A stretch of DNA of 63,986 nucleotides, filler included, from Dimargaris cristalligena (taxonomy: Eukaryota): NCBI GenBank assembly GCA_003614675.1. It is 3 parts of 3 records of this genome, joined end to end, with 100 filler letters (N's around TTAATTAATTAA, not from the genome) between each part and the next. Parts side by side here need not be neighbours in the genome. Positions count along the whole stretch, not along the records: positions 1 to 21,920 come from ML002650.1; 2 more parts are not named here. One strand, given 5' to 3'. The notes beneath the pieces were generated by a model. It searched no databases and was not told the DNA's origin. It worked only from the letters and a program-made list of their open reading frames with translations. This document shows positions 1,324 through 49,731 of the stretch, piece by piece. A program made the translations under genes and the position numbers. Within the stretch, counting starts at the first letter, position 1; every line of letters begins with the position of its first letter.

Positions 1324-1527
1324 TAATCGAAGTGTTGGTTACTTGACCCTATAATTTTTTTTTACTAAAGCAAGTCGAGAAATCACCCTAACCCTGAGAA
1401 GTTCCGTTATATACAGGAGGTCCCTTGCGCTCGACTAACCATTCTATTATTCCCTCCCCTTTTACCGTGCCCCCTTTTTTTTGCATAACCCCCTTAAAGG
1501 TTTTTTTTTGCCCATAGTCTGTGTATC

Positions 1528-3159
1528 ATGCTAGCCGCTAGTAGGGTCGTTCAGGAAATGCCGCTCGGGGCTGACCTGGAGAAGCCGATTGCCCTTCGTG
1601 CCACCAGCGACCCCCTGCCTCATTCGTCGGCGAGAGAGCCTCAGTCCGGGCCGAGCCTTGCGGAAGTTGGTGTGCCCGATATATTCCCAGTGCCCCGCAA
1701 AACCCACACCCTACCCTACCTAGCCAAGCTATCTCTATCCTCCTCCTGTCAAGAACAACTTGAACTACTTGTGTCCCCGGCCCCATACGGTGCGGCAGGG
1801 CCTACCTCGGCTGACCCCTACCTGGAATGCCCTCCATTCCAGGTGTCGGTTGGTTTACCCACGCCTACCATTGACCCCGCCCAACCTCCCGCGGTTCCCG
1901 AGCCCAGAATACATAATAGAATAAACAACCCCGCCGGCGCCGCCGCTGTCAGGGTCGAACTCACTGCTGCCAGGCCACAGGTTGGCACCCAGTCGTCGGC
2001 TTCAGAGATATTAGCCCCCCAACCGGGGTTGCTTTTAACGCCCAAGTCTACCCACTTGTTATTTTCGGATGCCGAACAGGCTATAGTGGTGAAAGGGGGT
2101 TATTTGGATACTACTGCTGTACCTACCCCTCGACCCTCCACGCCCCAGACCGTTGCCACTGTGCTTCTCCCTCCCCCCGATGTGCAGCTGTATTCCCTGG
2201 GCCGTAACTCCCAGGGTCGCACATTTGCGACTATTCCCGACGATTTTGCCAAGCGCCCAGATACGGGGGACGCCTTAGTCGGCCGAACGGCCCCGCTCAT
2301 ATCTGCGGAGGAGGTGGAGACTTTCAAAGTATGGGCTGAGTTTTCGGCCAATGCCTACGATGATGTCACCGGCTGGCGAGGCCCCCGGTGCGGTGGCCGG
2401 ACGACGGGCACCCATACAGTCCGAACCTTCCATAGCCGCATGCCGGCCAGCGATGCCTACGTAGCGGTCAACGACCGACTGAAGAGCGTTATTTTAGCCT
2501 ACCGCGGCACGAGTCGCCCGTTGGCGGCCATCCAAGACCTGAAGATCGGCTTGCAGAAGTTCTTTCCCGACGCCCCGGGGGTAGATATCCACCGGGGGTT
2601 TATGGAATCCTACCTGGCCCGGGCCGATTCTATATACGCGACCGTGGAGGAGCTGGTCAACCGGCGGTACCCCGGTTACGATTTGGTGATTACGGGGCAT
2701 TCGCTGGGCGGGGCGCAGGCCCTGCTCGCCGCGGTCGATTTTAGCCGTCGGCAAGCGGCCTGGATTCCCCGGATCCGGCTCTACACCTATGGGCAGCCCC
2801 GGGTGGGGGACCGCGATTTCGCCCAGGAAGTCCAGCGGCTGGGCTTTTACATTCGGCGGATCACGAACGGCGAGGACCTGGTGCCCCGCCTGCCCCCACA
2901 GTTTCTCAATTACTTGCACTGCGGGACCGAAGTATGGATCAATAACAATCATCGACCGTGGCCGGGGCAGGAGTTCTCTACGGTGTTATGTGGACCCGTT
3001 GATAGTATCGGCGAAGACCCCATGGGGTGCAACAGCGTCGCAGTCATGAAACTGGAAGTACAGGACCACCTCAAGTATTGGAATATCGGGCTGGGGTCGC
3101 TGATCCTCAGTCAACCGATTATCTCGAGTGGCAATAAGGGCAGGTGCGATATCTTCTAG
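1528..3159 (+). CDS. Class 3 lipase (alpha/beta hydrolase) with a long Pro-rich N-terminal extension
   Basis: 543-aa ORF with ILAYRGT, IHRGF, nucleophile VITGHSLGGA, YTYGQPRVG, catalytic Asp in EDLVPRLPP and His in QDHLKYW. A splice-acceptor-like CCCATAG lies just upstream, so the 5' end is uncertain. Confidence 0.9.
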   Translation: MLAASRVVQEMPLGADLEKPIALRATSDPLPHSSAREPQSGPSLAEVGVPDIFPVPRKTHTLPYLAKLSLSSSCQEQLELLVSPAPYGAAGPTSADPYLECPPFQVSVGLPTPTIDPAQPPAVPEPRIHNRINNPAGAAAVRVELTAARPQVGTQSSASEILAPQPGLLLTPKSTHLLFSDAEQAIVVKGGYLDTTAVPTPRPSTPQTVATVLLPPPDVQLYSLGRNSQGRTFATIPDDFAKRPDTGDALVGRTAPLISAEEVETFKVWAEFSANAYDDVTGWRGPRCGGRTTGTHTVRTFHSRMPASDAYVAVNDRLKSVILAYRGTSRPLAAIQDLKIGLQKFFPDAPGVDIHRGFMESYLARADSIYATVEELVNRRYPGYDLVITGHSLGGAQALLAAVDFSRRQAAWIPRIRLYTYGQPRVGDRDFAQEVQRLGFYIRRITNGEDLVPRLPPQFLNYLHCGTEVWINNNHRPWPGQEFSTVLCGPVDSIGEDPMGCNSVAVMKLEVQDHLKYWNIGLGSLILSQPIISSGNKGRCDIF

Positions 3160-7097: not shown

Positions 7098-8773
7098 TTA
7101 AACGGAATCCAGAGTGGATTGCATGAGTCTGGCATTGGGGGTATTGATCAGAACCTCGGGAATGGGCCCGGCCAAGACACTATCTCCACGCATTGTGCCG
7201 AGCTGATCACCCAGCGCCTTTCTCAATATGTACTTGTCCACAACAAAGGCGACGGTGTTTCTGACTGTGTCATATCGGATTTTGTTACCCAGAATGTCAT
7301 AGGGACAGTGTTCCAAGTCGGGAATGGGACGATTGGCTGCCTCAAGGTCCGACCGCATATTCTCCCATTTTTCGGCGAATTCATCCTTGGTACGGCTGAA
7401 TCCATATTTCTCGGCACACAGTTGGACCTGGCGAACAAAGTCCGCATTCATTTCTGATCCTTGGTAGAAATCGTAATGTAAGGGATATGGCCCATTTTCT
7501 AACATAAGCATGAAGCTCGGAATAATTAGGAACCAGTCGGCCTCCGCCCATGTAGCCCACTGTCTTTTGAGGTACTCGATTAGATTGTCCCAATCCTTCA
7601 CGGAAGCTAGAGTGAAAATCGTGGCAAGTTGGACCACCTCGGTCTGGGGAGCCGTAGACTCAAAACTATCTTCGATACCGTAGGCATTTTCCGCTGCGTC
7701 GAACAAAACCTGCTTTTCCGGTGCCCAGACCTGATTGCATGCCTTCTTGAATGAAGCACTACCGCTGTAGCTCGCCAAGAGATTCTGGAGTTCCAGTACT
7801 AGATCGATATTGCCGTCGGCCGCCAGGCCCAGCATTGGCGACATGACATACCTCTCATAGCGGGTGAGTTCCAAAAGCTCCACCACCTCCCAATGGGTCC
7901 CTGCGATCTGTTCGGCCTTTACATAGGCCTTTATGGCCTCGGTTATTTCAGGTAAGGGCTGTTTCTGGTAGGCATCGGATATTTCAGCCAGTTTGGAATC
8001 AATGAAGTGGTCGTCCTCGTCGTCAGTCGAGTCACCAGAAGGGTAGTAACCGAGGTTGAACTCAAACTTGAAAATATCGATTAGAGGGTCCTTTTCGTCT
8101 TGTGCAAGACTGTCATATTCTAGACTATAGTCGCCAACGCTGGGTAGGAGGCGTTTCATCTAAGCGGGGTTTAAAAACCAAATAGAAATATAAAAAAATG
8201 GCAGTCAAGGGATTGGATTTAGACGAAGGTAGGAAGAGAGTGGCTCTTCAAAATCGCCGCAGTCTATATCGCAGTGGGGCTAGGGTAACCAAATATTTCA
8301 CTAGCATATTCCAGCAACAACGGGCGTGGCAACGGGATTTCGGTGACAGTTGGAAGCTTGGCAATACCACCTAGGTAAACTCGACCCGCAGCTCTCTGAT
8401 GGAAAAACTGTGGTGTACTATTAGCATACATCATATTTCTAACGACATCTCTCTTATACTACCCCCTTACCATCATGTATCGATAAATAGGACTAAACTT
8501 GGTCAGTTTGTTATATCGCTGCGAAACCTTCATTAGCTCAGGGATTGTGTCAATGTCAATATGATCCAAGATTTTTTGAAATGTCTCATTGGCGAGTCGA
8601 TCAAGCGAGCCTCTAGAGGGAGGCGTAGTTTGACCCATGGGATGTGCCTGCAGCTGGATTTCTTGGGTGGATGGAGCTTCTTGATTGTCGAGTGGAGTGA
8701 GCACGGGGCTGGCCGCAACAATGGTCAATTGGACCATCCAGAAAAGCGAGAGGGTAGACACGGTAATCTTCAT
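7098..8773 (-). CDS. Putative secreted protein with an N-terminal F-box-like motif (about 454 aa, 2 exons)
   Basis: Exon 1 8773-8471 (MKITVSTLSLFWMVQLTIVAA-SP signal peptide; SLDRLANETFQKILDHIDIDTIPELMKVSQRYNKL) ends at a phase-0 GTAAGG donor. A phase-0 acceptor (pyrimidine tract, CTTAG at 8160) joins the 353-aa ORF 8159-7098. Confidence 0.7.
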
Positions 8774-17388: not shown

Positions 17389-19790
17389 TCAGCCCCGATA
17401 GGCCGGATTCAGTCTGAATAAATGGGGTGCATTAGTCGACGGGGGTTTGTTAACCCTCCCCCCCACCACCATTGTAGGTTGCAGAAGGAACCGGCCGTGG
17501 GGCCCCTTAGAATGGCGATGCAGACAATGGTTCAGGGTATTCAGGGGGGTCCGACCCCGCTGGGTAAACGCCGGTCCCACCACCGGGGATGTTCGGATCC
17601 GATCGTAAATGGCCTGACAGGACAGGGGCTCGGTCGCCGCTGCGAGCACAAAGGCACAGGCATCGGACCAGCTTCGGATCCCCTCGGGAGTGGTTGCAGT
17701 TGCAGTTACAGCTGTTATGGCAGCTGTTGCTGTTGTTGTCGCCATCATCCTTGACCGCCGGACCAGAGCCGGAGTGGGATACGGGGATACCGATCGAGAA
17801 GAGCGGGAGTTAATGGCAGCTAAGGAGGTACCACCTACGGACCGGGTGGGTGACGAAAGGGGTGAGGGAGATCCTGCACCACGCGTGGTAGGCGAGGAAG
17901 AAAAAATGGGGATCGCCAGGGTGGGGGTTAGGGTGGCTGGGCGACGTGGTCGACGACTGGTACGAGGCGAGGAAGACGAAGCAGAGGTAACCACAAAGGG
18001 GGAAGGGGCCATGATCACGGTTTTGCCCGATCGCCGGGTAGGGGTAGGGGTGGTGGTAGTGGTAACAGGGAGGGGCTTGTTCAATACGGGAGCCGCCGGA
18101 ATAGCCGTGACCGCTATCCGGGGATGCGATGATGGTGGTGGCGACCTAGGCAAACCGACCGTTTCGTCGGCTTTCCGTTTCCGAATTAGTACCGGGCTAC
18201 TACCAGCCGGTGCCACAAGTGGTTTAGATCCCGCGACTGGGCTGGTGGATACAATAGCAGCAGCAGTAGCTGAAGGGGCGGGAGAATTTTTAGACCGTTT
18301 AGGGATAAGGTTGCCCTCCCCGTCAACGAGAAGGGGCCGGGGGAACGCTTCGTAGTTCCGGAAATCCCAGACTTTCACTAGCCCGTCGTCGGAGCCGCTA
18401 ACGATTAGACTTTCGGTCATGTCGATTGCATTGACATCACTGTTATGGCCCTTGAGTCTCAGAATATTGCCTTCTTCGCGCTGACGGATGGACCAAACCC
18501 GAATGGTCTGAGGGACAAGAGAGCCAGGGCAATAGGGATGGAATGGGTGATAGAATGAGGGGTTAATAACCTGATAGAGAGTCTATTACAAACAAAAAGA
18601 AATGGCAATGATAGCATTGGTATCTCGGGCTGATCCCTTCCATCCTCCCCCTGAGGAGTTGGAGTAGGAAATGGGGAAGCAATGTATTGTAAAATGATAA
18701 GAGAAGAGAGGAGAACCCCGCAATCATAATACCAACCACCCAATAATCATTATCAGGGACATTAGATTAAGCATGGCTGGAGGGAAGGGGGGGGATGTTT
18801 GAAGGGCGAATATCCCACATAATGAAGGGGTGTGTAAGTTAGGAAAGAGTGAAGGACTGGCGCCTATAGAGAGGGGGAAATTACCTTATCGTAGGATCCG
18901 GTACAGAGCTTGGTGCCATGGGTCTGGAGACAGCGAACCCCGCTAAGGTGGCCGTGAAGCATGTGTGGTTCGACTCGTTGGAAGGGGAACGCGTTGGTGC
19001 TAGGCGAAGAGTTCCGCCGGTTCAGTCGCTGCAGTGGCTTGCGCGAGTTAGTGGGGGACTGGGTCGACTGGTGGTGGTGCCATACCAAGATGGATGAATC
19101 CTCGGCGCCCGATACTAGATACGACTGATCCAATTTTAGCGAAGTGACGGGACTGCAATGGTTTCCAATGTACGAAATCACGGACCGGGTGGCCCGGTCG
19201 CACACCACGACGGAACTTCCGACTCCCACGTAGAGGAAATCGGCATCGAAGTCTACGCTACCAATGACATCGCCGGCCGTGGGTATCCGGGTGGTCGTAC
19301 TTCCAGGCCGACGAGGCGCCACGGGGGCAGTAGCAGTAATGGTAGTAGTAGTAGTAGTAGCTGTCATAATCTGGGGGCCATTGCCTCCTCCTTCGGGTAT
19401 CACCACGTCCTCATCCGGGTAAAGATTAAATATAGACTGACAGGTACCCGTGACGGTGTCCCAGATCTGCACTAGGCCGGAGCCCGTACCCGCGGCCATC
19501 TCGTGTTTTTTGTACCGCAGACAAATGACCTCATCGCCGTGGTCCAAGACGTGTTGGCGCACAAAGTCGGGTTTGCGGGTAGCGAGGGAAGCGAATGCGG
19601 GGCTACCCAGGGTTTTCGATGCATTCCACGGGGGCCGCTGGTCCAAATGTGCCAGAATATCGTCGTTCAAGTGGGCGAGTGCCGGATGATGGCAGTGGCG
19701 GGGGTCGGTCAACCGCCGCCGCGGGGATGTGGTATTAGTAGTAGCAGTAGTAGTAATAGTAGTAATAGTAGTAGAAGAAGGAGAAGAAGA

Positions 19791-19825
<35 letters not shown>

Positions 19826-20750
19826 CAGTAGCAGTAGCAGCAGCAGCAGTAGTAGGGACGGCCAGTTCCCCGCCCTGCAGTTGCCAAACCAACACGGTAC
19901 CGTCCCACGAACCCGAGACCAAGGTAGCTGACATTCGATCATAGTCCAAACAAGATACCGCATTGGTGTGGGCACGCAGGGTGCGTACGCAACGGTTAGA
20001 ATCCAACGACCATACTTTAATGACGTGATCGCGACCACCACTGAACACGAGGCGCCGCACGGGGTCAATGCGGACGGCCAGGACCACGCTGGAGTGACCC
20101 CGGTAGTCGCGGGTTTTATACTGACCCCGGTACCAGTTAGTTTCCAGCCGGTAGTAGTACTGGAACTCCTGGTCCCAATGAATAGCGGCCCGAGTGGCCG
20201 GAGGCAGGGGTTGGTAGCAGTGCAGGTAGTCGGGTAGGCGGAGGTGGAAGCGGTGCGGGGAAGTGGTGGTAGTGGACCGGAGGAGGGGCGAGGGGCCCGT
20301 AATGGTCGTTGAGTTACCGACCACCGCCCCCCCTCCTCTGGTTGGGCGGTGGCCAGCGGTTGACGTGGAGGCGGCGGAAACCTCTCCTATTTCCTCGCTC
20401 ACCTCTTTTTTTCCACCTTCGGAAAGAACGGTAGTGGTAGTAGTCATTGGTCGGGGCCGGATAAACCCGTCACGCGCTACGGTAGACTGGGGGTAGCGCT
20501 CCTTGACCAGCGGCAGGAAGCCGTGCCGGCGACACTGGTGGTACCACAAGGCCTGTTCGCCACACAGGATCCGCCAGCGGCGACAGGTCTGGGAAGCGGC
20601 CACGAGGGACTGGACCGGGAGCTCAGACAGGCACCGGAAAGTGATATGTAAGGGGAGCTTGGACAGGATATCCTGCTGGGGCGACCTGGCGGCCGCTGCC
20701 GCCGTCGGGGCCACCACGGGTTTGCTGAAATAAGGGTGTTTGCCCTTCAT
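17389..20750 (-). CDS. F-box/WD40-repeat protein with C-terminal HARE-HTH (ASXL-like winged-helix) domain, about 994 aa, 2 exons
   Basis: Exons 20750-18885 and 18507-17389 (GTAATT...CAG, phase 0; the junction GSYDK|TIRVWS restores a WD40 repeat). F-box DILSKLPLHITFRCLSELPVQSLVAASQTCRRWRILC. Multiple GH..WD-type repeats. C-terminal RSWSDACAFVLAAATEPLSCQAIYDRI...GRTPLNTLNHCLHRHSKG. Confidence 0.9.
19734..19855. repeat. Coding trinucleotide repeat tract (AGT/AGC/AGA)n encoding poly-Thr/Ala/Ser
   Basis: GTAGTAGTA.../GCAGCA/GAAGAA runs. On the minus strand these encode TTAAAATATATTTTTTTTTTSSSSPSSTTITT, an insertion in the WD40 region. Confidence 0.9.
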
Positions 20751-20823
20751 GTCGGAGCACAAGTGGGAAGTAAGTAGTAAAGAGGTGTGTACACAGCTAA
20801 AGGGGAACGGGGCCGTTTACCCG

Positions 20824-20859
<36 letters not shown>

Positions 20860-23452: not shown

Positions 23453-26202
23453 CTCTAACCCTTCGTGGCTGGTGATTATCAGGGTGGGTTAAAAAAGGCG
23501 ATAAAGTCCCCATCCCGTCATTTGAGTAAGCAGGCCTAGTAGTGGTATCAGCACTGTGCCTGCTGCCAGTTGTTGATTTTGTCTTCCATTTTATTTTGGT
23601 GATTCTTTGCATTTCAGATAGCCAATAAACTCCACTACATTTAAAACATGCTACAATTCTTCGCCAAACTCCCGGCCTTGAAGTTCTGTTGGCGGTTTGT
23701 AGTTGGCTCTTCAATAGGCAACAATTTCCCACAGCCTTACCCGAGGTTGATTAAATGTTGCTTTACCGATAACTAAACCCGAGTCTGCCAATAGCTGATT
23801 GGGTATTTACGAGGTAACAGCTCACAGCAATCTAATGCAATATGAAGTTGGCGTATCTCTTCAGTATCTGATCAGTTTGAGTATTGTTTAGTATACCATA
23901 CCGTGATCCGAGGCAATGGTTTCAAGCGGACCAGTCCAATTATTTGGTGTAGACCGCATATGCCCTTTGACGACTGGCATAATTTCATTTAGGATGTTCG
24001 CGGCTATAGAAATTGACTATTTTATTGTTGAATCAAGCACGAATGTAATCTAGTTAATACCAGTACGTTGCCTGTTCTCTACTCCGGCTACCCAGTATTT
24101 TGACGACTTACTACGTGATAAAATATTGTACCCTAAACCATTTTTAACAAAAGTTTGGCCGTCAACACCGACACTGCAATTTAGCAGAAAATTTTGCACG
24201 TATTGTGGTAGCATAGCCACCGATAGATTCACTGTTCAATGAATTAAATGAACGACTTTATCACTATATTATTGTAAATATCTATAAATGTCCTGTTGGT
24301 ATTATTTACCATTATTCTTGGCTTTTTTTGATGGTAGGATACTCTAATGCTTTCCGTACCTCAGCTCTCTCGAGTCCTTTTATCTGACCACGTATCACCA
24401 CAGTCTATAAAGCCACATATGTTCCGATGGCCGTTGTAATGATCGTATAGTACCCCGGAAAATCCATTTCGCTCAGTGCCTCTAGTGTTATTCAGACAAG
24501 GGTTTATGCGAAGTATGCGTTCATGATAGACGTGGATAAATGGGGATGCAAAACGATTGAAAGTGTGATAGTACGGGTTGTGGTTGGGATTGGTGGCCAT
24601 TCGTGCTTTTTGTCAACCGAGGACATCCTTTATAAAAAATCGATGTCTATTAAAACTTGGATGTAATTAGGGTATGATGCGCTAAAGCCGGGATACCTCG
24701 GAAGAATGCAAAGCAGGAATGACTTGGGCGCTCGAAGGGGGACGATAGAAACACGGATAGATGCGCTAATAATAATAATAATATATTGGGCGTTAAACAC
24801 GGGAACCTACAACATTGCAACTATAATGTAATACACCCCAAGGTGTGACCTATTGGCAAAATGCGGGTTAAAACATAAGGCGTGGCTATTCCTCTATTCA
24901 CTCTATGGTGTTATTTTTACTACTAAGCAATACAAAAAAATAAATAAATAAAGGAGGCCATAATTCTATGATGGGGTGGAAGCCAGTGCGAAGGGTATCT
25001 CCGCCTTGGCGACCGAATGTAATATGTAGACATATATCTAAATATAGCCCAATCCCATGTTTGAGGTATTGGTAGCAGTATACGGAAATAGGGGCCCCGG
25101 CCGACCGGGACGGCATCCTTGAGCCAACCATTACTAACCAGTCAGTTCTAATGAGTTCCACAGTACCCCTACCCCACCCAACCCATTCCAGGCATGTTTC
25201 GATTGCCTAGGTCTGACAGTGATTACCTACCCCTCCGCCACAGACTCGGGAGCCACCTGGTCGGCTAACAGAGCGGAAATTTGGCAGTTCTTTGCCTCCC
25301 CCTTCAGCCCCAAGACCGGTTGGCCTTCACTCCTGATGCGGACCAAAGTGGGATGTTGCAACCCCCCTGAGGTTACACCAATGCTATTCTTCCCCCCTGC
25401 GTAATACCACTCATCTAGATCTGGTTATTTGCCAAGTGAGCTAAGTTTACTACAATTTTGTTACCAGAGACCCACCCCCTCTTCTCCGCTCTCCCAATAA
25501 CAAGCAAGAGGAAGGAATCGATGGTAACGTATCCCGCCACATACGCTCCTCGCGATTTCAATTCTGTTAAGCCATGCATGGTGCTAATGGTAATGTAGAG
25601 TATAGAGGCCAAGAAGCACCATGGTTGAGTATGGCGTTATCGCCTACAGTCCAAAAAGACCCCTGGACTATAGGCGATACCGTTGTTGACTATGGTAATA
25701 GTTTGTCTAGATGGATGTTCCTGGGTACGCAAAGCACTGTGCCAAACCAAAGAAACGACTGGAAGTTGGAGTGATGGACCTTCTAGGAACAGTATAAATA
25801 CAAAGCTTCACGGAGACTACCGGTAATTAACTCCTACTCTGTCTTCACCCGACCATAACCGATATGAGCTTTACGATCGACTCGTTTTCTTAAACCCATG
25901 CTTCCACTTTCCCAGTGACTATTGGAAAGGTGGAATATCCATTTATAATATATTATTTGTACTCAGAAATAAATCCGTCATATACAAACCAACAGTCAGG
26001 TAGAGCCTGCTATATCATTTATACTCTCTTGCGCTGTCCTATTTTCAGGAACCATTACACTCTTTATACATTTTACTGCTCACGGATATTATATTATCAG
26101 TCTACACTTGGCTATTCACAACCAGTGACTGTACCCAACTACCCACGCATCTACCCTATTTAACCCCCGAATTGATTCACCCCTTAAGCAACCGCCTTAA
26201 CC

Positions 26203-26997
26203 ATGTGGCAGTCTATTCTTAAATGCCGGACTCTTATTTTGGCAATCCTGGCTACGCAAACCCTGCGGATGGCCCAAGTTCAAGCAGATCCGATGATAAC
26301 TCTGGATCCTTCCGCGGGTCCCGACGCTCTGTTCCCCTACGGGTACGGGATGATAAAACTCCCCCCCGCGGCTGGCGGCCCTACTACCTCCCCTCCCGAG
26401 GTTGAGGCTTGGGCACCCAATGGACCGTGTCCATTCACCCCCGGTACCGATCACAGTGCCTCCTGGCGTCAACCGGCCGGCTCCGCTCGCCACCCCGCTT
26501 CCTGTGCCGACATCACGGCCTCGGATTCGGGCTCAGATCACGAATACTCGTCCCAGAACCCCGGCGATTTCACCCCCACCACTCCCACTCCCACTCCCAC
26601 CTCCTCCTCCAACCCCTCCCAGAACCGCCGCCCCGTGGTCAACCTCCTGGTCATTGACTTGGATCTAGACAGTCACTTGCGCGGAGGTGTTCGTGTGGAC
26701 CTAAACCTGCTGGGCTTGCTAAGTTTTCGGGTCCAAACGTTCTCAGTGTTCGGGTATGACGCTGATCAAACCCTGATTTATTCCCGCTCCTATTCGGGTA
26801 TCTTCCTGCACATTGGCGGGATGGAAGTCATCAAGGTTAACCTCGGGTCTTGCCAAGGCTTGAACCTGCATACGGTGGTGGTGGTACTGGAGTCGGGCGG
26901 TAAGCGCTACGTTGGTAAGAAGCAACTCGACCAGGACTACTCGGAGCACCCGCAACTCCGGGCCTTTATGGGAAATAGTGAGGTGGACAAGCACTGA
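26203..26997 (+). CDS. Secreted hypothetical protein (264 aa): Pro/Thr linker plus beta-rich C-terminal domain
   Basis: Signal-like MWQSILKCRTLILAILATQTLRMAQVQA-DP, GC-rich single ORF, upstream TATAAATA near 25793. Confidence 0.7.
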   Translation: MWQSILKCRTLILAILATQTLRMAQVQADPMITLDPSAGPDALFPYGYGMIKLPPAAGGPTTSPPEVEAWAPNGPCPFTPGTDHSASWRQPAGSARHPASCADITASDSGSDHEYSSQNPGDFTPTTPTPTPTSSSNPSQNRRPVVNLLVIDLDLDSHLRGGVRVDLNLLGLLSFRVQTFSVFGYDADQTLIYSRSYSGIFLHIGGMEVIKVNLGSCQGLNLHTVVVVLESGGKRYVGKKQLDQDYSEHPQLRAFMGNSEVDKH

Positions 26998-27693: not shown

Positions 27694-28809
27694 TTACGCG
27701 GTGTGGTTCAGGGTGGTCAGATTTTGGATGATACGGGCCTGCCGACGCTTACTAATCCCAATGGACCGGAGATAGCGGGCAGGAGTTTTATATTGTTCCC
27801 GCATGAACTGGATGGTCATGCGCATAGCTTCCGGCGGCGCATCAATGAATTCCTCAGGCATACCAGTGCCCTGCATGTCCCGCTTCATTTCCTCGATTTG
27901 GCTCCGCATTCCCTCGCGGGTCTTCGTATAGTCGTCAATAATGAGTTCGTCGTCCACCCCGAGCAGGGATAGCAATAGGGCCACGATAATGCCGGTGCGG
28001 TCCTTGCCGTGGGAGCAGTGGACCAAGATGGGGTAGTTCTCCCGGTAGCTAAACGGTTTAATGGCGCGGGTGATTTCTTTGCCCGAATAGCGGAGCAGCC
28101 CGGAGTAGAAGCCGGGTAGGCCAATGTCCTGGAAGACCTCCCGACCCACCGTCTCCAGGACCTCCCGGCGCATACCGCGGAGTTGGTAGTAGCAAATCTT
28201 GCTGCGGGTAATCCAACCCGCGGAACCAAAGACGAACCCGTACCGGAAGCGGGGGCCGATTAAATTGATATTGAGCCGTTTTTGGTGTTGCACCGGGGCC
28301 ATGGGGGACACGTCCGTCGACCAGGTGGCTAGACTACCGACGGAGGACGACATGCGAGAGTCGCTGCTTTCCCCAGTACCTCCCCCACTTTCCGACTCGT
28401 TAGTACTGGCACTCCCCGAGTCCACGGGGCTAGCCGCAGGCGGGTCGTATGCCAAGGCAGTGACGCTATCCAGGACCGGGGACTGGGTGCTGCCAATGGT
28501 GGGGGCCACCAGGGGGAAATGGCTGTACCAAGCGCATTCTTCGTTATTGTGGCACTCTAAATCCGAACGAAGGTCGACGATAGTTTTGATGCCGATGCGT
28601 TTGGTAATCTGCTCGAGGTCTACTTCCGAGGCCCGGTCGGGTCGGGCCGAGCGAAAGAGGAGTCGGGGCAAAATAGGGATCCCTAGACCATCCCCGGTGG
28701 GATTCCGTTGGCGAAGCGATTCCGACACCGAACAGGCCACATCGCGGAAGTTGGAGATGTTTTCAAAGGCGTACTGAAGATCCGCCTCTTGAAGCACCGT
28801 GGCGGCCAT
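27694..28809 (-). CDS. Tyrosine/lipid phosphatase, Y_phosphatase3 (MptpB/IphP-like) family, 371 aa
   Basis: ENISNFRDVA, LFRSA, IKTIVDLRS, active site PILVHCSHGKDRTG, LLGV....IIDDY..T. First ATG at 28809. Confidence 0.9.
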   Translation of the reverse strand: MAATVLQEADLQYAFENISNFRDVACSVSESLRQRNPTGDGLGIPILPRLLFRSARPDRASEVDLEQITKRIGIKTIVDLRSDLECHNNEECAWYSHFPLVAPTIGSTQSPVLDSVTALAYDPPAASPVDSGSASTNESESGGGTGESSDSRMSSSVGSLATWSTDVSPMAPVQHQKRLNINLIGPRFRYGFVFGSAGWITRSKICYYQLRGMRREVLETVGREVFQDIGLPGFYSGLLRYSGKEITRAIKPFSYRENYPILVHCSHGKDRTGIIVALLLSLLGVDDELIIDDYTKTREGMRSQIEEMKRDMQGTGMPEEFIDAPPEAMRMTIQFMREQYKTPARYLRSIGISKRRQARIIQNLTTLNHTA

Positions 28810-30700
28810 GGTCAACTCGAGTGGATAGAGGCAGGGGTTACGGAAACAACAACTATTTGCTAAAGAGGGATGAGAGATGGAGGGAATGAGAGGACCACGG
28901 GAAGAAACGCCGCTGAGCCAGGCAGGGGGCAGACAAAAAGCTCCGAGTATATTGTATAGACGAAAGGAGCGGCGTTTGGAATACCGTTTAGGAACGGCGG
29001 GCACCCAAGCTATACACCTGACGGAGCTGGATAAACGTGAGCGGAAATAGGCCAATTGTAAGGAGGGCGAGAGATATAACCACAGACTAGGTTAATAAGC
29101 AATATTCAAGGGCCCCGACACTTAGGTCACCTGTATGTAATGTAGTGTATAGCTGGTGTGTATGGTAAATAGCTAATTAGAGAACCGTCGTGCATTAAAT
29201 AAAGCCAATAGTGTTAAGGGGCGCGGAGAAACAGGGCCTTATTTATATTAGGGGGGACTGGTGGCCTAAAGGAAAGGAAAGGAAAGGAAAGGGAAGATAT
29301 TATCACAGGGGTTGTTTGGATAGCCGGCCCCATCCAGAGACTCTTCTATAGAATCTGCCCGGAAGAACAATAGCTAAATGGGTATGATTATATGCAATAA
29401 CAGGAACGATGGGAAAAAGAAGGCCCACCCCACCCTAGTCGCCAGAGAGAGAAAGAGAGTGTGGCCTGGTATTGGTTTTGACCAATGGCATAGGCGCATC
29501 GAGCCAATAGCGGATCCGGCATGCTTATACAGGCAGAAACGAATAAAAATAGGCTTTCATTTGATAGGACCCGCACGCCTCGTCTTTTTTCCGGCCCAGC
29601 CAGTCGCATGGGAGGCGGAGAAGCGAGCACACGCTCTACAGCCCCGTCGGTTGGTTGCGCGGGCAGGACGGTTGCTTGGCATACGGGCTAATTTACCAAT
29701 GCCATGGGAGGTGCGTCAATGAGAAGGCCAACGGTAGCAATGAACGGTCGGTTGGCCCATCTCCCTACTTGGCTTGACCCCCCATCACCTTGGCTATCCA
29801 ATCCACCGGGGCCGCCCCCCTTGCTCCCCTCAGCTCCCATTCAGGGCGGCTAAGAAGTTAGGCAGACGGCTACTTACTGGCCCAATTACGGCCTGCATAG
29901 ATGACGCCTATTGATGAAGGCCACTGCTGAACGGCGCGCAACTCTGCACATTGGCAGCGTCTTCTTAAGTAAATCCCAACCTCTTGCATACGTAGGGGGT
30001 CGCGAGGGTGTGGAGTGGGGTGGGTGGATTTTCCTAAACCAGCTAATTATCGGTCCTTATTTCAGCAAGTAATCGCAATAATCGCAGAGGCCCATGGATA
30101 ATCAGCTTGTAAAAGACCACAGAGATCATCGGATGCGATCGTCAGGATTCCAGATGGCACCATGCTAGTTCTGGTATTTGCATTTATCTGCACCATAGTA
30201 ACATCGCCACTGAGCATTATTTGAGTCCAATTTAAACTAGCAATCAATCGCCTATTTTATAGTTCTGGCACTATATTCACGATGGCAGTAACTCAAGCAC
30301 CGCCTACACTAACTCATTGAAACAAAGGATACGGCCCCGTAGCCAGACATTACTTGTTTTATTGAAAAAAATATGCCCTGATTAAGCAGCGCGGTAAATC
30401 ATACGGCAGTGCATGCAGTGGTGAACATAGAAAGGAAAGTATGAACATAATAGTAATAATAATGAAATTTCCAACACAGGAGCATTTGGTAAGGATAGAG
30501 AAAGGCAAGAGTCAGGGAGCAAAAGTAGCGCCCGGCAAAGATACCGCAAAATAGGGCTCTATAACTAATTCAGAAATAATGGGAAAATGTGTGTGTGTGT
30601 ATGTTTTGGTATGACAGTGAAATCCCAAAATATAGCTTCTGTGAACCAGATCAAAAAAGATTTTATCATAAAAAAGAACACCAAAGATGATGCGACCTTC

Positions 30701-33700
30701 CTACTCAATAAGTTTAGCATAATCGTCAAACGACGCCAACAGGGGCAAGTCCGACAGTTTGCTCTTGCGGGGCTTCTTGCTCTTCTTATCCTCGTCGCCA
30801 TTCGCACCACCTTCCTTGGTCTTGCGTTTGATGTCTCGCTTGGTTTTGATGCCGGCCTTCTTGAGAATCGCGTCGAGATAATTGCCGGACGGCGCCGCTT
30901 CTTCGTCGCCACTGTCCTTCTCCGCCCCAAACTCATCATCATCATCATCATCATCACTACCAGCGCCAGCTTCGCCATCCGATGGGACTTCCAGAGGAGC
31001 CGCCAGTTCGTCGTCCTGGAGCAGCATGGCCATCCGATCATCATCGCCCTCATCCTCGTCCTCATCTCCGTTATCGCCATCGCTACCGGAATCGTCGCCC
31101 GACCGGTTAAAGTCCCCGGGCTGGGCGGCTTCGAAGTCCACCTCGAACTCGGCGTCCACATCTAGCAGACCGCCATTCGCCTCTCCGCCGAGTTCCTGTT
31201 GCATCAAAGCCAACGCCTCGGCCTCTTCGGCGGCGTCTTCCTCCGGCCACGCCTCGTCCATACCACTACCACCACCAGCCGCCTCATCATCACCATCGTC
31301 GTCGTCGTGATCCTCATCGGCCCAATCCTCCGAATCCATGAACCGGGTCTTCTGGCCCTCCACCGTCGTCACCGTCACCTTCTTTTCCCGCAGGTACGCG
31401 TAAATGAACCGATCGTCCGCGGGGGCGTCTAAACTCTTCCTTACGGCCTCGGCTCCGCTACCGATTTTAGCCTGATCTAAACCCGCGTAAAACCGCTTCG
31501 ATGACAGAATATGTCGACCCTCCCCGTGGGTGGGATCCGCGGCTTGGACGCGCGGCTGCATAAGCGACATACCCCGCTCGGGAGCTTGGTTCTTCTTGGG
31601 GTTCCGGAACACGAATTTGTCCAGGAAGTTCTGCAGCGAGTAGCTGTACAGATTGGGCGCCGCGATGTTCTGCAGCAGTTGGCGGACGATTTTGACGGCA
31701 TAATAGGCCACGGCCGGGTGGAAGTGGTCCACAAAAGGGAGAATCTCCCAGAGGCACGTGCTATCGGCAAAGGAGAAGAAGGGGTTGGAGTGGAACTGGT
31801 TATAGGTCCGCAAGGTACCTTCGGTGGTCCGGTTGGACGGTTGCTGGAGCGGGACCCGCGGTATTTTCGGGGTAATCTCCTCGGAGCGCCCCTTCCGTTG
31901 CTTTTTAGGTTTCGGAACATTGCTACCGGCCGCGTTCGCCGAAGAAGTGGGGGCTCCACCCGTGCCGGGGGTCTTGGTTTCGGCGGAGGCTGCCGCAGAC
32001 CCGTCGGCCGGTTCGGGGGCGTCTACGAACTTTTCCGACTCATCCACCTCTTCAGCTTGGATGATCAGACTACGCAAGTGGGGCTTGACCTGGAACAACT
32101 CGGTCAACATAAAAAAGACACCGCACACGAACGGAGCATCGTGGAACATGGCCGTCTGGACAATGCGCTTCACAAACGCACTGAGGCGCCGGGGGGAGTT
32201 ATCCAACAACAGACTTCGGTACAGGATGTTGATGTACATGGCCTGCTTGCTGCTGCTTAATAGACGCTGGTCCAGCAGGGACTCGTAGAGCGCCATATAG
32301 TAATGGTCCCAAATATCCGGTTGCGATACGGCCAGTTTCAAAATGAGCATCAGGGCCTGTACCACGGTGTTGAAGTTGGAGAAGGACAGAATCTTGAACA
32401 GCAGTTCGAGGTACTCGGTATAAACCACGTTGTCCAACTGGGCGAAGTTCATGCAACGGTTAATACCGGTCAGAATGGCGGTGATGAGTTTGGTGTAGTG
32501 GAGCTCGGCGCGTTCCAGACTTTCCTTGGCGTCTACCTTGGCCTTGACCGCCTGGATGCGGGTATTCCGTTGATCGCGCTGGGCACGGCGGGTGGCTCCC
32601 TCATCGGGCAGATTCCGCCAGCGCTTCTTGTCCCGGGGCTTGCCGGGTTCGGCCGGGCCGTGGGGGTTTTTGGGGTTCCATCTAAACGGCTTATGTACCG
32701 GCTTGGTCGGCAAAGTAGACTTGGGCGGCTCGTCGTTGGCCAGCAGAACCTGGCGGAACAATTGGATGTAGATTTCCATCAGGCGGTTGGACGTCACTGG
32801 GTCGTCGTCGTAGAGCACCACTTGGTTGAGAGTAGCCACGCTGTAGTAATAAGCGGTATCGTGGGTCGAGCTTTTGTTGACCACCTCGGCCAGCGCATTG
32901 ACGACCGCAATGGACATGTTAGGGAACGTGGCCATCAACTGCATGAGCAGATGGTTGACTTTGTTACGAATCGAGGGGTCGGAGTCTCCCATCTTGTTAC
33001 AGAGGATGCGCAGCAAATTCTGTTCCTGTTCGGGGCGTTGCGTCAACAACGAAAAGACGCTCTCCATCGCCGCGCGCCGGATATGGGTGACCGTGTCAAA
33101 GGCACCGGTTTCCAGGATGCGCACGAAGCTGTAGAAGCTCCGCTTGAGATTATCCTCAAAGTACCAGGCCACCAAATGCTGGGGCGTCACGTCCGGGTGG
33201 CCGTGGGGCTGATCGGCAAAGTAAGCCAATTTGCGTTCGGGCAGCATATCGGTGACGAACAAATCGGTCAAACTGGTCAAAGCAACCAGTCCGGCGTCCC
33301 GATTGCCCCGCGTGACCATGCCCATTAATTGGGCTAGCTTCTCGAGGTTGTGGGCCGGGGAACTTTGGATGGCGAGCGCTAAGGCGGAAATCCGATCGCC
33401 CGAGGTACCCTTATGCATCACCATATTGGCGAACCGCCGGTCGCCGGACGAGAGGTGCGGGTTGGACGTAAAGCTGGCCAGTTCCCGCTCGTAGAATTTC
33501 TCGGCCATCGCCAGTCGTTCATCGATGACGGACTTCGCGAGGGTCTCCAGATAAGGATGCTCGTCGAGGTGCAGGGCGGGTAGGGCATACCATTTGGAGG
33601 AGGCATCGAACAACGGGGTTTTTCTAAAGTAACCGATGCTCTGCAGACGACTGTTGGTCACGGGAATGGGGATATCGGCGGCCGGGGGTTCCGATTCGTC

Positions 33701-33887
33701 GGCCAGATTCATTTCGTCTTCACTGTCGCTCTCGCTGTCACTAGAACTGGAACTGGAGCTGTCGGAGGCATCGTCCTCGCTATCATTCTCACTGGAATCA
33801 TCGGTGACATCACTTTCACTAGAACTATCAGCGACATCCTCGCTAGACGACGCCGAATTTGGGTTAGCCGGTTCAGCCTGTAGGATA

Positions 33888-33925
<38 letters not shown>

Positions 33926-37576: not shown

Positions 37577-38350
37577 TTTGAGTAGGTAGTGTATATTATT
37601 AGAAGGGTCGGGTCAACTAGACCTGGCGGGTGCAGGACAGCCAATGCCAGTAAGCAAACAAAGGAGTCGGACGCGATACTTGGGGAACGGAAGGGCAATT
37701 CCGGCTGCAGGGGACTTCTCTGTACTATACAAGTTAAAAGAGTCTGGGATCTCTTTAGTCCAACAACTGCTCAGTTAAACCCCTGTTAGGTGCAATGTCC
37801 TGAGTACCAATGCAAAGAAAATAAAAAACGAAAAGCTTGTAACCCCACACATTCCTAAAGTTCCTTTCGTACCGGAGGAGCATAGTCACTGTACCACACA
37901 AAATGCCCTTTGGGATGGTACTTTATTTTAAGGAAGCCAGGTTAAAAAGCAACCCACGCCCGTTTATTGTGGGGGAAGCCAGAGAGGAAGGTTTTATTTG
38001 GGTGGGCAGTATACATTTAGCCAATGGGAGTTCATTCAAGGGGAAATGTAAATAAATGCACTTATTTCGCTTGACCCATAAATCAGAAAGGTATTTTGAC
38101 CTTCCCTCTAAGCGCCCGGGCGGACTTTAAATTAGCTACTGCTGGGAGAGGAGGGGAACCCGTTCTGAGGCACATGAAAAAACGGCCTGGTCTTTTTTGG
38201 GGGAGGAGAACCGCTTCAGATGCTGCCAGTCTACATGGTTTTGCCCAGCTCTAATTGTATTAAGCCTGGTCTGATTACCACTCCGTCCCATTCAGAGTGC
38301 CGTCTACTTGCCTGCTTTCTTTAGCCTCTACTCCCGACTACTACTCACGC

Positions 38351-40468: not shown

Positions 40469-41242
40469 ATTGCCCAGATAGTATTCCCTTTGAATCGGCT
40501 TACACTCCCCATTTTGATGCATTCTCCTCCGTGGTTTCCTCTATTGAATGAACAGCCGCCCATCGTGACTCAAGCGTTGGTGGCTTGGTTTAATCAGATT
40601 TGACTACTCGTTATTCCCCTTTTATATTACCACTCTTGTACGACTGCGTTGTCCCCTATGTATCCTAATTAGCTTAATGATGACCCATTAAAGTATTTCT
40701 AGCGCGTTGCCTTTCTGATCCTTGTTTGATCATTTGGGTTGTCTTTGCCAATAGCCGTGATTATCTATTCATATACCCCGTAGCTGGATTCCTAAATTAA
40801 ATATAATATATAAGTAGTGTTTTTCGTTTCAATTAACTGGTTGCGCGACGAGACAGAGGCCTACTGGTATAAATAAATAAGCTAAGTACTAACCATGGGG
40901 GATACTCTGGCAAATCACACTGATGAAACGATGTCTATTACTCAAAGGCCTAAATACGGACCCACCATAATTGGCTTTGGGCAAAACAGCAGTGAAGCAC
41001 TGCTCATTCAGTAAGTCAGGCTGGTGCCACCTAGTCAGCTCAGCCAGCCTAGCTAACGCGTTCACAACACAGTCCCCGTCACAGTTTCGCCCCAGCGACC
41101 CCTCTACACCCGCCCACCATAGCTACATGTCTCTAATGCACCTGTACCAGACCATCAAGCTAATCGTGATCATATTCCCATCCTCAGTTTCTTATTGTTT
41201 TATATTTATTATATATATATACATAAACAGTTATATATAACG

Positions 41243-42379
41243 ATGGGTTCCGTTTGGCCCTACCTTTGCTCGTTGCTGGGCTTGTTGTCTGCTTTGACCG
41301 CCTATGCTTCCGACGCCTCCGCCACGGATAAATCCGCGGCCCGCGACACCTCGCTCCCCTTCGGCCTCTCCAACTTATTAGGCCGCCAACCGACTTCGGA
41401 AATCGATCTCAACCTAGCCCAGTTCTACCCCGAATGCGCCATTCTCATCGTCTTTGCCTTATTCGCCGCCTGTTACTACAAGGGCCGCCAGACCAACCGC
41501 ACGCTGGCCATCCGCGTCGCCAACATTTTGAAACCCATCCTCGACCAAGAATTCAGTTATGTCGGTGACGGTCAGCGGTTCCTCCTTCAGGACGATCCGG
41601 CCAATTTCGTCGTGTACGGCAGTGGCCGTCGGCACTGCGAATCCCTCCACGGGTTCCTGCAACTCCGCAACCGCCACGACCTGATCCGGTTCGTTCTGGG
41701 GTGGTTTATGCCCGCGGCCTCCGATCGCCTGCAGCTGGAAATCCAGTTACGGCCCGAGGAGTTCAGTGGCTTCGTGTACGGCGTGGCACCCCAACGGGCG
41801 GCTAAAGGCATCCGGGAGAGTCGGTGGGACCTAAAAACATTCACCCGGTCTACCACGCTCCCCACGAAGGGTTCGCGTAAGATGACCCAGTGGGTGGAAT
41901 CAACGGAACACGCGACGCTGTTCGATAAGGCTGGACTCCCCGAGATGGTGAGCCACCGGGACGATGTGCTGGATGAACTGTTCGTGACGGACCAGCCCCT
42001 CGATAAACCCACCGAATTGGCCGACCTGCCCGCCCGGCGTACCCTCCAGGCAGTCATTCGCATCACTGATTCGGATGAAGCCGTGGCCCGTGCCGTGGCC
42101 TTTGTCCTGGCCCTCATCGATTATATCCCCACCCACCATGCTATTCGGGCGGAAACTAAAACAAAATTAATCAAGGCCCGCGCTGAAGCAATTCGGGATC
42201 TGGTCAAGGCGGAGTCCCAGGTTCAACAAGAAAGGGCCCAGCAGCTGAAGGCGGAACGGAAGAAAAAGGAGGCCGATAAAGTGAGTCAAATGACTCCCGA
42301 AGCCCAGCGCAAGTGGGAGGAAAAACAGCAGCAGAAGGAGTTTAAGCGTAAACAAAGCCGAATGGTTCGGCGCAAGTAA
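41243..42379 (+). CDS. CCDC47: CCDC47/DUF1682 family ER membrane protein (PAT complex subunit), 378 aa
   Basis: Signal peptide, TM ending YYKGRQTN, YGSGRRHC....GFLQLRNRHDL, and basic coiled-coil C-terminus (MTPEAQRKWEEKQQQKEFKRK). Confidence 0.85.
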   Translation: MGSVWPYLCSLLGLLSALTAYASDASATDKSAARDTSLPFGLSNLLGRQPTSEIDLNLAQFYPECAILIVFALFAACYYKGRQTNRTLAIRVANILKPILDQEFSYVGDGQRFLLQDDPANFVVYGSGRRHCESLHGFLQLRNRHDLIRFVLGWFMPAASDRLQLEIQLRPEEFSGFVYGVAPQRAAKGIRESRWDLKTFTRSTTLPTKGSRKMTQWVESTEHATLFDKAGLPEMVSHRDDVLDELFVTDQPLDKPTELADLPARRTLQAVIRITDSDEAVARAVAFVLALIDYIPTHHAIRAETKTKLIKARAEAIRDLVKAESQVQQERAQQLKAERKKKEADKVSQMTPEAQRKWEEKQQQKEFKRKQSRMVRRK

Positions 42380-49546: not shown

Positions 49547-49731
49547 CACCCGCTCTCCCACGTCTCCACTGCCCTGTTCCTTCCCTGCCAAGGGTTGCTG
49601 GAACGTCTTCTCAACATTGATACACTCTATTGTTGTCTTTACCCCTTCCCTGCCCATTCCATGAACCACGCCTCCCTTTCCCTTCTCCAGCCTTCGTTAC
49701 TCTACACCTCGCTCCGTCCCCGCTCCTCCGA

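Follow-up and report, generated by a model that had tools for sequence, protein, structure and literature searches.

An F-box/WD40 protein with a C-terminal ASXL-type HARE-HTH winged helix in Dimargaris cristalligena: a candidate chromatin-directed SCF substrate receptor

The locus described here raises the question of whether, in the mycoparasitic fungus Dimargaris cristalligena, a single gene combines an F-box/WD40 ubiquitin-ligase adaptor with a winged helix of the HARE-HTH type and, if so, what such a domain might contribute to such an adaptor. An initial annotation of the window (the whole 63,986-nt stretch of DNA that was analysed, along which all positions are counted) had proposed an F-box, WD40 repeats, a long basic S/T/P/R linker and an ASXL-like HARE-HTH in one gene, with the C-terminal domain from about 17679 onward. 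Translation, Pfam, profile and AF2 analyses bear out this organization, and the domain is placed at about 17679..17392.

Gene model and domain organization

The gene occupies window positions 20750..17389 and has the following features.

17389..20750, minus strand: entire coding region from ATG to stop codon, in two exons; ~994 aa; same model as the deposited protein P0003
18885..20750, minus strand: exon 1; 622 codons covering the N-terminus, F-box, blades 1-5 and the start of blade 6
18508..18884, minus strand: intron; 377 nt, GTAATT...CCTCAG, with a GC dip and an ungapped WD40 join
17389..18507, minus strand: exon 2; 372 codons plus stop, covering the remainder of blade 6, blade 7, the linker and the HARE-HTH
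20526..20666, minus strand: F-box; aa 29-75, above the Pfam cut-off, helices at 28-85 in the AF2 model
18364..20117, minus strand: seven-blade WD40 propeller; ~aa 212-670, interrupted by the intron, with disordered low-complexity loop inserts
19732..19855, minus strand: trinucleotide array; period 3, 41 copies, encoding a Thr/Ala/Ser-rich insert between blades 2 and 3
17680..18363, minus strand: disordered linker; ~229 aa (S34 T31 P35 A29 R22 K7), pLDDT <50
17392..17679, minus strand: ASXL-type HARE-HTH winged helix, C-terminal; exon-2 aa 277-372, with a 13-aa species-specific wing-loop insert

Two stop-to-stop frames are present on the minus strand, at 18864..20816 (650 aa) and 17389..18582 (397 aa). 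Translation of 20750..18885 gives 622 aa beginning with MKGKHPY and ending with CTGSYDK, and translation of 18507..17392 gives 372 aa beginning with TIRVWS and ending with LFRLNPAYRG. The predicted GT..AG intron between them (18884..18508) has a GC content of 0.486 in its bin, compared to 0.54-0.61 in the coding bins. Joining the exons regenerates a single WD40 repeat (GSYDK/TIRVW); the same join is made in the deposited 991-aa D. cristalligena protein (P0003), and it aligns with the orthologues without a gap. Exon 1 matches P0003 at 618 of 622 residues, with a single 3-aa gap in an Ala/Thr run, and this length difference is located in the trinucleotide array.

The intron and the 3' end are both placed from sequence logic and orthologue alignment, which leaves some room for an artefact in which two adjacent genes, or one gene plus a fragment of a pseudogene, have been misread as one; gene models in these genomes can also be imperfect, since one chytrid model (P0013) lacks an F-box. 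Such a misreading is nevertheless very improbable. A single open frame within one exon spans blade 7, the linker and the winged helix, with no intervening stop, and exon 2 is identical to that of P0003, which comes from a second assembly (372/372 residues). The domain order is, moreover, shared by five species from two phyla, including compact chytrid forms in which the linker is only 15-20 aa long.

The Pfam matches in exon 1 include F-box-like (37.8 bits, cut-off 24.3), F-box (33.8 bits, cut-off 20.5) and WD40 (85.8 bits), and one further WD40 match (29.2 bits) falls in exon 2. The F-box is kept in four of the five orthologues, the exception being P0013. In the full-length AF2 model, 28 strands form seven groups of four with pLDDT values of 80-92, whereas the propeller inserts at P0003 residues 294-388, 443-485 and 558-591 fall below 50. 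This model has a pTM of 0.50 and is based on a four-sequence alignment. Conservation of the winged helix is about equal to that of the propeller; the linker is unconserved and shrinks to ~15-20 aa in the chytrid orthologues. The position of a basic cluster in the linker, IRKRKADE, is nonetheless kept in all three Dimargaritales (alignment columns ~785-795).

The C-terminal winged helix and its distribution

The HARE-HTH family (PF05066) is the sole Pfam match for the last 103 aa of the protein (E 1.6e-4), at 22.5 bits against a cut-off of 25.9; a 98-aa version gives 22.7 bits (E 1.4e-4), also below the 25.9 gathering score. The match stops at model position 59 of 71 because of the 13-aa species-specific insert in the wing. 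The orthologous domains of Tieghemiomyces (33.5 bits) and Entophlyctis (38.2 bits) are above the cut-off, and PF05066 is the only family to match at E<=0.01 for all five domains, with a best value of 7.2e-11.

A profile built from four of these domains and searched against 177,635 PDB sequences returned only two matches at E<=10, both of them human ASXL1 residues 10-82 (7.7e-8 and 4.7e-7), which agrees with the likeness to the ASXL N-terminal HARE-HTH pattern that had been pointed out from the sequence. An exhaustive phmmer search of 1.84 billion proteins with the 103-aa sequence found eight matches at E<=0.001. Five of these are meaningful: the protein itself, Tieghemiomyces, Dispira, Entophlyctis and, at E 4.1e-4, a bacterial protein with three HARE-HTH domains and an Mrr_cat domain (P0010). 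The other three (P0007-P0009) were rejected as repeat or low-complexity noise, judging from their sequences. A language-model (Atlas) search ranked a HARE-HTH cluster first (0.93, 175/256 features). The domain is basic in all five species, with net charges of +4 to +9, and features a conserved G-R/K-T/A-P turn ahead of the third helix as well as an ASXL-like LH..S motif.

The AF2 model of the isolated domain (pLDDT 74.3) consists of a helix at 6-16, a short strand, helices at 23-32, 37-41 (short) and 48-57, and a hairpin formed by strands 66-69 and 89-92; these elements recur when the protein is modelled at full length, and the folding alignments contained only four sequences. An extra helix inserted in the HTH is described as a HARE-HTH feature in the available text of PMC11037411, and such a helix is present in the predicted fold, as anticipated for a winged helix of this type. 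In a fold search of 48,161 chains, the top ten matches (Z 8.5-9.3) were winged helices of the forkhead, linker-histone, PadR/BlaI, Z-alpha-like and cullin WH-B types, although a Z of 9.3 only slightly exceeds the usual top score of unmatched models in this search. Foldseek found nothing in the PDB at E<=0.001, the best match being the FoxO1 DNA-binding domain (3.2e-3). The fold evidence therefore supports "winged helix" and not "HARE-HTH" specifically. ASXL1 and RNA-polymerase-delta chains are not among the fold-search or Foldseek matches listed, which is no evidence against a HARE-HTH assignment.

Collinear architectures were identified in three Dimargaritales (D. cristalligena, Tieghemiomyces parasiticus and Dispira parvispora) and two chytrids (Entophlyctis helioformis and Polyrhizophydium stewartii); judging from these sequences, the gene is real and conserved in five early-diverging fungi. 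None of the ~115 other F-box/WD40 proteins retrieved showed this architecture, in keeping with the earlier statement that ordinary fungal proteins of this class have no DNA-binding domain. Word-index searches gave the D. cristalligena protein alone when the window's domain was sought among longer proteins (1 of 290 candidates), and just the four known proteins among 8000 scored when the four-domain profile was used. A Sphagnum protein (P0014, E 8.8e-77) is a WD40 protein in which the winged-helix profile reaches only E 7.1, and it was set aside. The five carrier species are little studied, and none is a genetic model.

No description of the architecture was found in the literature searched, a scope that covers neither the figures of the founding HARE-HTH paper (Aravind and Iyer 2012) nor paper supplements. 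The initial impression that it was undescribed is consistent with this, but must be qualified, as the proteins are already public and one has been automatically named "HTH HARE-type domain-containing protein".

Possible roles of the fused domain

The preferred reading, to which a probability of about 0.55 is assigned, is that the protein is an SCF substrate receptor that is put on DNA or chromatin by its C-terminal HARE-HTH. The F-box would dock on Skp1 of an SCF (Skp1-Cul1-F-box) ubiquitin ligase, and the seven-blade propeller would bind a substrate by a route other than the FBXW7/Cdc4-type phosphodegron pocket. The ASXL-type HARE-HTH, on its flexible basic tether, would bring the ligase to DNA or chromatin, and it is therefore proposed that ubiquitylation may be confined to particular chromatin sites. 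Skp1 binding, a nuclear location, DNA binding and a preference for a modified base are all inferred for this protein, and any coupling of a DNA mark to ubiquitylation is purely conjectural.

It is possible, but unlikely, that the HARE-HTH is not a DNA binder and instead serves as a protein-interaction or regulatory module, such as an additional site for docking a substrate or partner, a lid that auto-inhibits the propeller or a degron-like element governing turnover of the adaptor itself. In bacteria, the RNA polymerase delta subunit has an N-terminal domain of this Pfam family that binds polymerase, and winged helices of the same fold make protein contacts, including the cullin WH-B found among the fold matches (Z 8.5). 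The ~15-20 aa linker of the chytrid orthologues would likewise hold the domain beside the propeller. Kweon et al. attribute proteolytic targeting to a module made up of the ASXL1 HARE-HTH and a lysine-rich segment (PMC6591016, available text), and the ASXL1 domain is reported, in a source available in part, to be dispensable for BAP1 activation; by analogy with these ASXL1 findings, a HARE-HTH need not bind DNA. However, the net positive charge in five of five species, the conserved turn and the LH..S motif are harder to reconcile with such a role. The domains closest in fold bind DNA or nucleosomes, and the 229-aa flexible tether in D. cristalligena is better suited to a free-ranging anchor than to a lid.

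A more specific proposal is that the HARE-HTH reads N6-methyladenine (6mA) at fully methylated or hemimethylated ApT sites and steers SCF-dependent ubiquitylation to 6mA-marked, transcriptionally permissive chromatin; in one variant, it could work immediately behind the replication fork, in the way that UHRF1 serves 5mC. This is somewhat more doubtful than a protein-interaction role. The two literature observations invoked in its favor at the outset are confirmed as published, at least in the available text of each paper: the purified ASXL1 HARE-HTH pulled down a 6mA duplex and not 5mC or 5caC DNA (PMC6591016), and 6mA in early-diverging fungi is confined to ApT and tied to active genes (PMC12695648). 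The former paper also links 6mA deposition to E3-dependent (TRIP12) proteolysis. The fungal domain is specifically ASXL1-like, given the profile match in PDB sequences, and bacterial HARE-HTH relatives such as P0010 are joined to restriction endonuclease domains. The role of fungal 6mA reader may also be vacant, because a 2026 review, in its available text, knows of none.

Several observations nevertheless weigh against a 6mA reader. The specificity of HARE-HTH domains is disputed, the literature being in conflict, and, according to the available text of PMC11037411, the 6mA preference that the 2019 ASXL1 study also reported for a RAMA domain could not be reproduced. The ASXL1 domain is stated not to have bound 6mA in a GATC context (PMC6591016, available text), so any sequence context would have to suit ApT. 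The F-box/WD40/HARE-HTH architecture was found in five species and not among Mucorales F-box/WD40 matches, although the Mucorales are 6mA-rich, and so it cannot be a general part of the fungal 6mA pathway. No 6mA data on Dimargaris were found in the literature searched. Less probable still is the full claim that this family is the first dedicated DNA-modification reader-effector in early-diverging fungi, with the HARE-HTH reading 6mA-ApT or its hemimethylated state and the SCF ubiquitylating a chromatin substrate.

If that claim were true, the family would be the cullin-RING counterpart of UHRF1. It would also mirror the 6mA/ASXL1/PR-DUB axis of animals, where this domain serves a deubiquitinase. 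Readers of 6mA are considered the missing piece of eukaryotic adenine methylation in the available text of two recent papers, one of which states that "identifying potential readers is key" (PMC12695648). The fungal domain provides a testable candidate: at ~90 aa it can be produced on its own, and a ubiquitin-ligase adaptor is attached to it in cis. Should it prove to be a reader, the chemistry of its downstream effector is therefore already given. Returning to the preferred reading, a chromatin-directed SCF receptor would still have a DNA-binding-type domain built into its F-box/WD40 architecture even if that domain reads another mark or plain DNA.

Comparison with known systems

Among solved structures, the compact orthologue is closest to FBXW7 (E 3.1e-61, compared to ~5e-39 for beta-TrCP and 7.7e-29 for Cdc4). 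As in FBXW7-like proteins, the fungal family has an F-box, a helical linker and then WD40 repeats, with a blade-to-blade alignment across seven blades. The FBXW7/Cdc4 propeller has eight blades; in the fungal family, seven blades are predicted by AF2, and the linker and winged helix stand where the eighth would be. The columns aligned with the arginine triad of the FBXW7 phosphodegron pocket (R465, R479 and R505) contain I, G/L/V and G/S/C in five of five family members, compared to R/R/R in seven of seven FBXW7-like proteins. Given the seven predicted blades and the absence of all three phosphodegron arginines, assignment as an FBXW7/Cdc4 orthologue was rejected, and no winged helix was found in any FBXW7-like protein retrieved.

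Among F-box proteins, the nearest conceptual precedents for carrying a reader of a DNA mark are the animal proteins KDM2A, KDM2B and FBXL19, which combine a CXXC zinc finger, an F-box and leucine-rich repeats (LRR); the CXXC domain reads unmethylated CpG, and the proteins act on chromatin. No homology is implied, as the fungal family has a HARE-HTH in place of the CXXC and WD40 repeats in place of the LRR, and the lineage and the mark also differ. In UHRF1, an SRA domain that flips out 5mC and a RING E3 domain place the reading of a DNA methyl mark and the ubiquitylation of chromatin on one polypeptide. UHRF1 has been termed a "multidomain reader-ubiquitin ligase" (PMC13297926, available text), but it is a RING E3 rather than an adaptor of a cullin-RING ligase, and none of its domains is related to those of the fungal protein. 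The bacterial P0010 contains the same domain family (Pfam 141 bits), and the HARE-HTH is an appended targeting module for an effector in both proteins. In P0010, however, that effector is a nuclease, the context is restriction, the host is prokaryotic, and the HARE-HTH is N-terminal and repeated.

The closest counterpart of the winged helix itself is the N-terminal HARE-HTH (PF05066) of ASXL1-3 and Asx, with which the fungal domain shares the W..A..VL first helix, the G.[ST]P..LN..LH..S+G region of the third helix and the F...F.L wing. A winged helix with an inserted short helix is predicted for both. Membership of the ASXL/Asx family was rejected, given the C-terminal position of the fungal domain and the failure to find DEUBAD/ASXH or PHD domains: these had no Pfam match among all 16 families for exon 2 or the best 25 of 43 for exon 1, and the confidently folded parts of the AF2 model are F-box, propeller or winged helix, with no room for either. 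In ASXL proteins, according to sources available in part, the domain is N-terminal, followed by a DEUBAD and a C-terminal PHD, and belongs to a deubiquitinase complex, whereas the fungal domain lies at the C-terminus of a ubiquitin-ligase adaptor. The connection with ubiquitin thus has the opposite sign, and the fungal family would show that the association between HARE-HTH and ubiquitin known from animal ASXL-BAP1 also arose in fungi, with that sign reversed.

Gene model and surroundings

An open-frame scan of the window detects two long minus-strand frames, 18864..20816 and 17389..18582, within AT-rich surroundings, with a GC content of 0.54-0.61 inside both frames versus 0.37-0.44 outside. 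The gene model built from these frames is as follows.

Exon 1: minus strand, ATG at 20750, 622 codons, C-terminal end ...CTGSYDK
Predicted intron: minus strand, 377 nt directly after exon 1, GTAATT...CCTCAG
Exon 2: minus strand, from 18507, stop at 17391..17389, 372 codons, beginning TIRVWS...

Joining the exons restores one WD40 repeat. An identical splice join is present in P0003, the deposited 991-aa protein ('hypothetical protein H4R33_005218 [Dimargaris cristalligena]'), which matches exon 2 at 372/372 residues and exon 1 at 618/622, with one 3-aa gap within an Ala/Thr run. The intron is predicted from splice signals, frame logic, independent annotation and an ungapped orthologue alignment. 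The agreement of frames, splice signals, P0003 join and orthologues supports the coordinates and intron proposed in the initial annotation, and an annotation artefact is very unlikely to be the source of the model. The 3-aa gap lies inside a 41-copy trinucleotide array (19732..19855), where the window and P0003 differ by 3 aa in length and one substitution, which suggests that the repeat varies in length among strains or assemblies. This array, coding on the minus strand in exon 1, encodes a Thr/Ala/Ser run of a propeller loop. An (AT)16.5 microsatellite is found at 20824..20856, with the start codon 74 nt downstream, in a region presumed to be promoter or 5' UTR.

The window DNA is nuclear and derives from a mycoparasitic Zoopagomycota fungus. 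According to Pfam, the long frames elsewhere in it are ordinary eukaryotic genes:

1498..3159, class-3 lipase
27694..29091, Y_phosphatase3
30701..33889, CBF/Mak21
38264..40468, haspin-like kinase
41123..42379, CCDC47
47960..48856, ribosomal L10-type
49621..50670, Pex22-like
51939..52793, PH domain

Frames 7098..8159 and 26188..26997 have no Pfam match at E<=1e-5.

Identity of the C-terminal domain

Pfam detects F-box-like (37.8 bits) and F-box (33.8 bits) domains at aa 29-75, both over their cut-offs, and WD40 repeats in both exons. The initial annotation proposed that the C-terminus is an ASXL-like HARE-HTH domain. HARE-HTH (PF05066) is indeed the sole family matched by the last 103 aa, but at 22.5 bits (E 1.6e-4; 22.7 bits with 98 aa) the Dimargaris domain falls below the gathering score of 25.9 bits, and taken alone this score is only suggestive. 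An exhaustive phmmer search with the 103 aa over 1.84 billion representative proteins gave 8 matches at E<=0.001. Three were dismissed as repeat proteins; the others are listed here.

D. cristalligena: its own protein
Tieghemiomyces parasiticus: P0004 and P0011, one partial and one full-length
Dispira parvispora: P0005, 762 aa
Entophlyctis helioformis, a chytrid: P0006, 561 aa
Bacterial P0010: three HARE-HTH domains and an Mrr-type nuclease by Pfam, 141 bits

The Tieghemiomyces (33.5 bits) and Entophlyctis (38.2 bits) domains exceed the PF05066 cut-off, and across the F-box/WD40/HARE-HTH family of five species, PF05066 alone is matched at E<=0.01 by 5/5 domains. When a four-domain profile was compared with 177,635 distinct PDB sequences, only two entries were found at E<=10, both of them human ASXL1 residues 10-82 (E 7.7e-8 and 4.7e-7), and the ASXL-like pattern described in the initial annotation is visible in this alignment. 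A language-model search places the HARE-HTH cluster first (0.93). As judged from sequence comparison, the relatives of the Dimargaris domain settle its identity as HARE-HTH at the family level, and specifically as ASXL-like.

An AlphaFold2 model of the 98-aa domain, made from an alignment of 4 sequences, has a mean pLDDT of 74.3 and a pTM of 0.67. It predicts a winged helix, in which the successive elements are helix, short strand, helix, short helix, helix, beta-hairpin wing; a 13-aa species-specific insert in the wing loop is modelled with low confidence. The predicted inserted short helix would correspond to the feature that, in a passage of a 2024 paper (PMC11037411), sets HARE-HTH domains apart from plain winged helices. 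Foldseek gave no match to the model at E<=0.001, the best being FoxO forkhead domains (~3e-3). The top ten of an all-against-representatives fold search are forkhead, linker-histone H1/H5, PadR/BlaI-type, Z-alpha-like and cullin WH-B winged helices, at Z scores of 8.5-9.3 that are modestly above background by the tool's own note. The modelled fold therefore supports 'winged helix', and assignment to HARE-HTH depends on sequence.

Architecture and distribution of the family

The full-length P0003 model (overall pLDDT 56) contains confident F-box helices at 28-85, a seven-bladed propeller (28 strands, pLDDT 80-92) and the winged helix at ~895-991. Disorder is predicted between F-box and propeller (99-187), in propeller loop inserts (294-388, 443-485 and 558-591) and in the linker (686-894). 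The four large low-complexity stretches ahead of the linker are absent from the chytrid orthologues and account for the ~430 aa by which the Dimargaris protein exceeds the chytrid form of 561 aa; in Dispira, some of these positions hold inserts of a different sequence.

Among solved proteins, FBXW7 is closest to the compact orthologue (E 3.1e-61), followed by beta-TrCP (~5e-39) and Cdc4 (7.7e-29). The seven blades of this orthologue correspond to blades 1-7 of FBXW7-like proteins when 12 proteins are aligned. The last-blade segment of the latter is absent from the family, with the linker and winged helix in its place. FBXW7 R465, R479 and R505, the phosphodegron contacts and cancer hot spots, are arginine in 7/7 FBXW7-like proteins, whereas 5/5 family members have I, G/L/V and G/S/C in these columns. 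With the triad replaced, the family does not qualify as a Cdc4/FBXW7 orthologue.

Four full-length proteins are collinear from F-box to winged helix; relative to the Dimargaris protein, the other three are 52, 48 and 35% identical. The winged helix is preserved about as well as the propeller (49, 45, 41 and 31%). The linker is not conserved, with 229 S/T/P/A/R-rich residues in Dimargaris, fewer in the other two Dimargaritales and ~15-20 in chytrids. When the complete chytrid protein served as query, Polyrhizophydium stewartii was recovered as the fifth species (P0013, E 1.3e-93; UniRef name 'HTH HARE-type domain-containing protein'). P0013 (491 aa) has the propeller and HARE-HTH, but its N-terminus is unrelated and lacks an F-box, probably reflecting a faulty gene model and not a true loss. 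That search yielded 121 proteins at E<=1e-20; among the matches listed, the abbreviated precomputed domain lists show PF05066 only for the two chytrid proteins, and those following the family (E 1e-49 to 1e-77) are FBXW7/Cdc4-like or generic WD40 proteins. Over 131 retrieved proteins, a domain HMM detects the winged helix in the five fungal species and bacterial P0010, with weak repeat-driven scores for two repeat proteins and E>1 for the remainder. The latter include the Mucorales and Dikarya F-box/WD40 proteins, consistent with the earlier expectation that ordinary fungal members lack the domain.

Since Polyrhizophydium was not recovered by the phmmer search, divergent members may go undetected; word-index searches scored 8000 candidates. 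Given this limited sensitivity, five species in two phyla is a minimum. In these searches the family is common only to Dimargaritales and chytrids. A passage of PMC13533422 reports that, among non-zoosporic fungi, only D. cristalligena carries a homologue of the giant-virus major capsid protein. These two observations could be coincidental or might point to exchange between the lineages.

Possible function and relation to known systems

F-box proteins of this kind attach to Skp1 through the F-box and use the propeller to bring substrate to the Cul1-Rbx1-E2 module. By analogy, the family F-box would dock Skp1 and its propeller would offer substrate to Cul1-Rbx1-E2. The winged helix is basic in 5/5 species (net charge +4 to +9). 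The Dimargaris domain is connected through a long disordered tether rich in arginine. Within this linker, the basic cluster IRKRKADE (window ~18100..18125; P0003 ~726-733) aligns with SRRRRWDD in Tieghemiomyces and RKRPHV in Dispira; its position is kept across the three Dimargaritales while the rest is unconserved, and it is a candidate nuclear localisation signal. In prokaryotes, HARE-HTH domains occur as additions to restriction nucleases and adenine methylases, according to part of PMC4738411. The best-supported reading, to which we assign a probability of about 0.55, is that the protein acts as an SCF receptor tethered to DNA or chromatin.

A serious rival, though a distinctly less probable one, is a non-DNA role for the HARE-HTH domain in protein docking, auto-regulation or as a degron module. 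It is somewhat more doubtful still that the domain reads N6-methyladenine (6mA). The relevant sections of Kweon et al. 2019 (PMC6591016) report that the HARE-HTH of ASXL1, on its own, bound duplex DNA with 6mA and not 5mC, 5caC or GATC-6mA DNA, and that 6mA deposition triggered TRIP12-dependent ASXL1 proteolysis; early-diverging fungi have 6mA at ApT sites, as stated in part of PMC12695648. However, passages of PMC11037411 consider cytosine modifications more likely to be sensed by HARE-HTH domains and state that a preference for 6mA, reported for the RAMA domain in the same 2019 study, was not confirmed. Furthermore, no report of 6mA in Dimargaris was found in the literature, and the family is patchy and absent among the Mucorales matches retrieved. 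The link to 6mA is inferential, and none of the five host species is a genetic model. Sections of two recent papers, one of them PMC12695648, name 6mA readers as unknown in fungi and a key missing element; a small expressible domain with a defined effector makes this question a bench experiment.

In the available portions of the HARE-HTH and fungal-6mA-reader literature, no description of the F-box/WD40/HARE-HTH architecture was found, in line with the initial annotation, although the domain's founding paper may mention one. Unlike ASXL proteins, family members have a C-terminal HARE-HTH and neither DEUBAD nor PHD, and are therefore not ASXLs. Animal KDM2A, KDM2B and FBXL19 are CXXC-F-box-LRR proteins. 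Together with UHRF1, an SRA-RING ligase that a passage of PMC13297926 calls a reader-ubiquitin ligase, they are the nearest concepts to the family.
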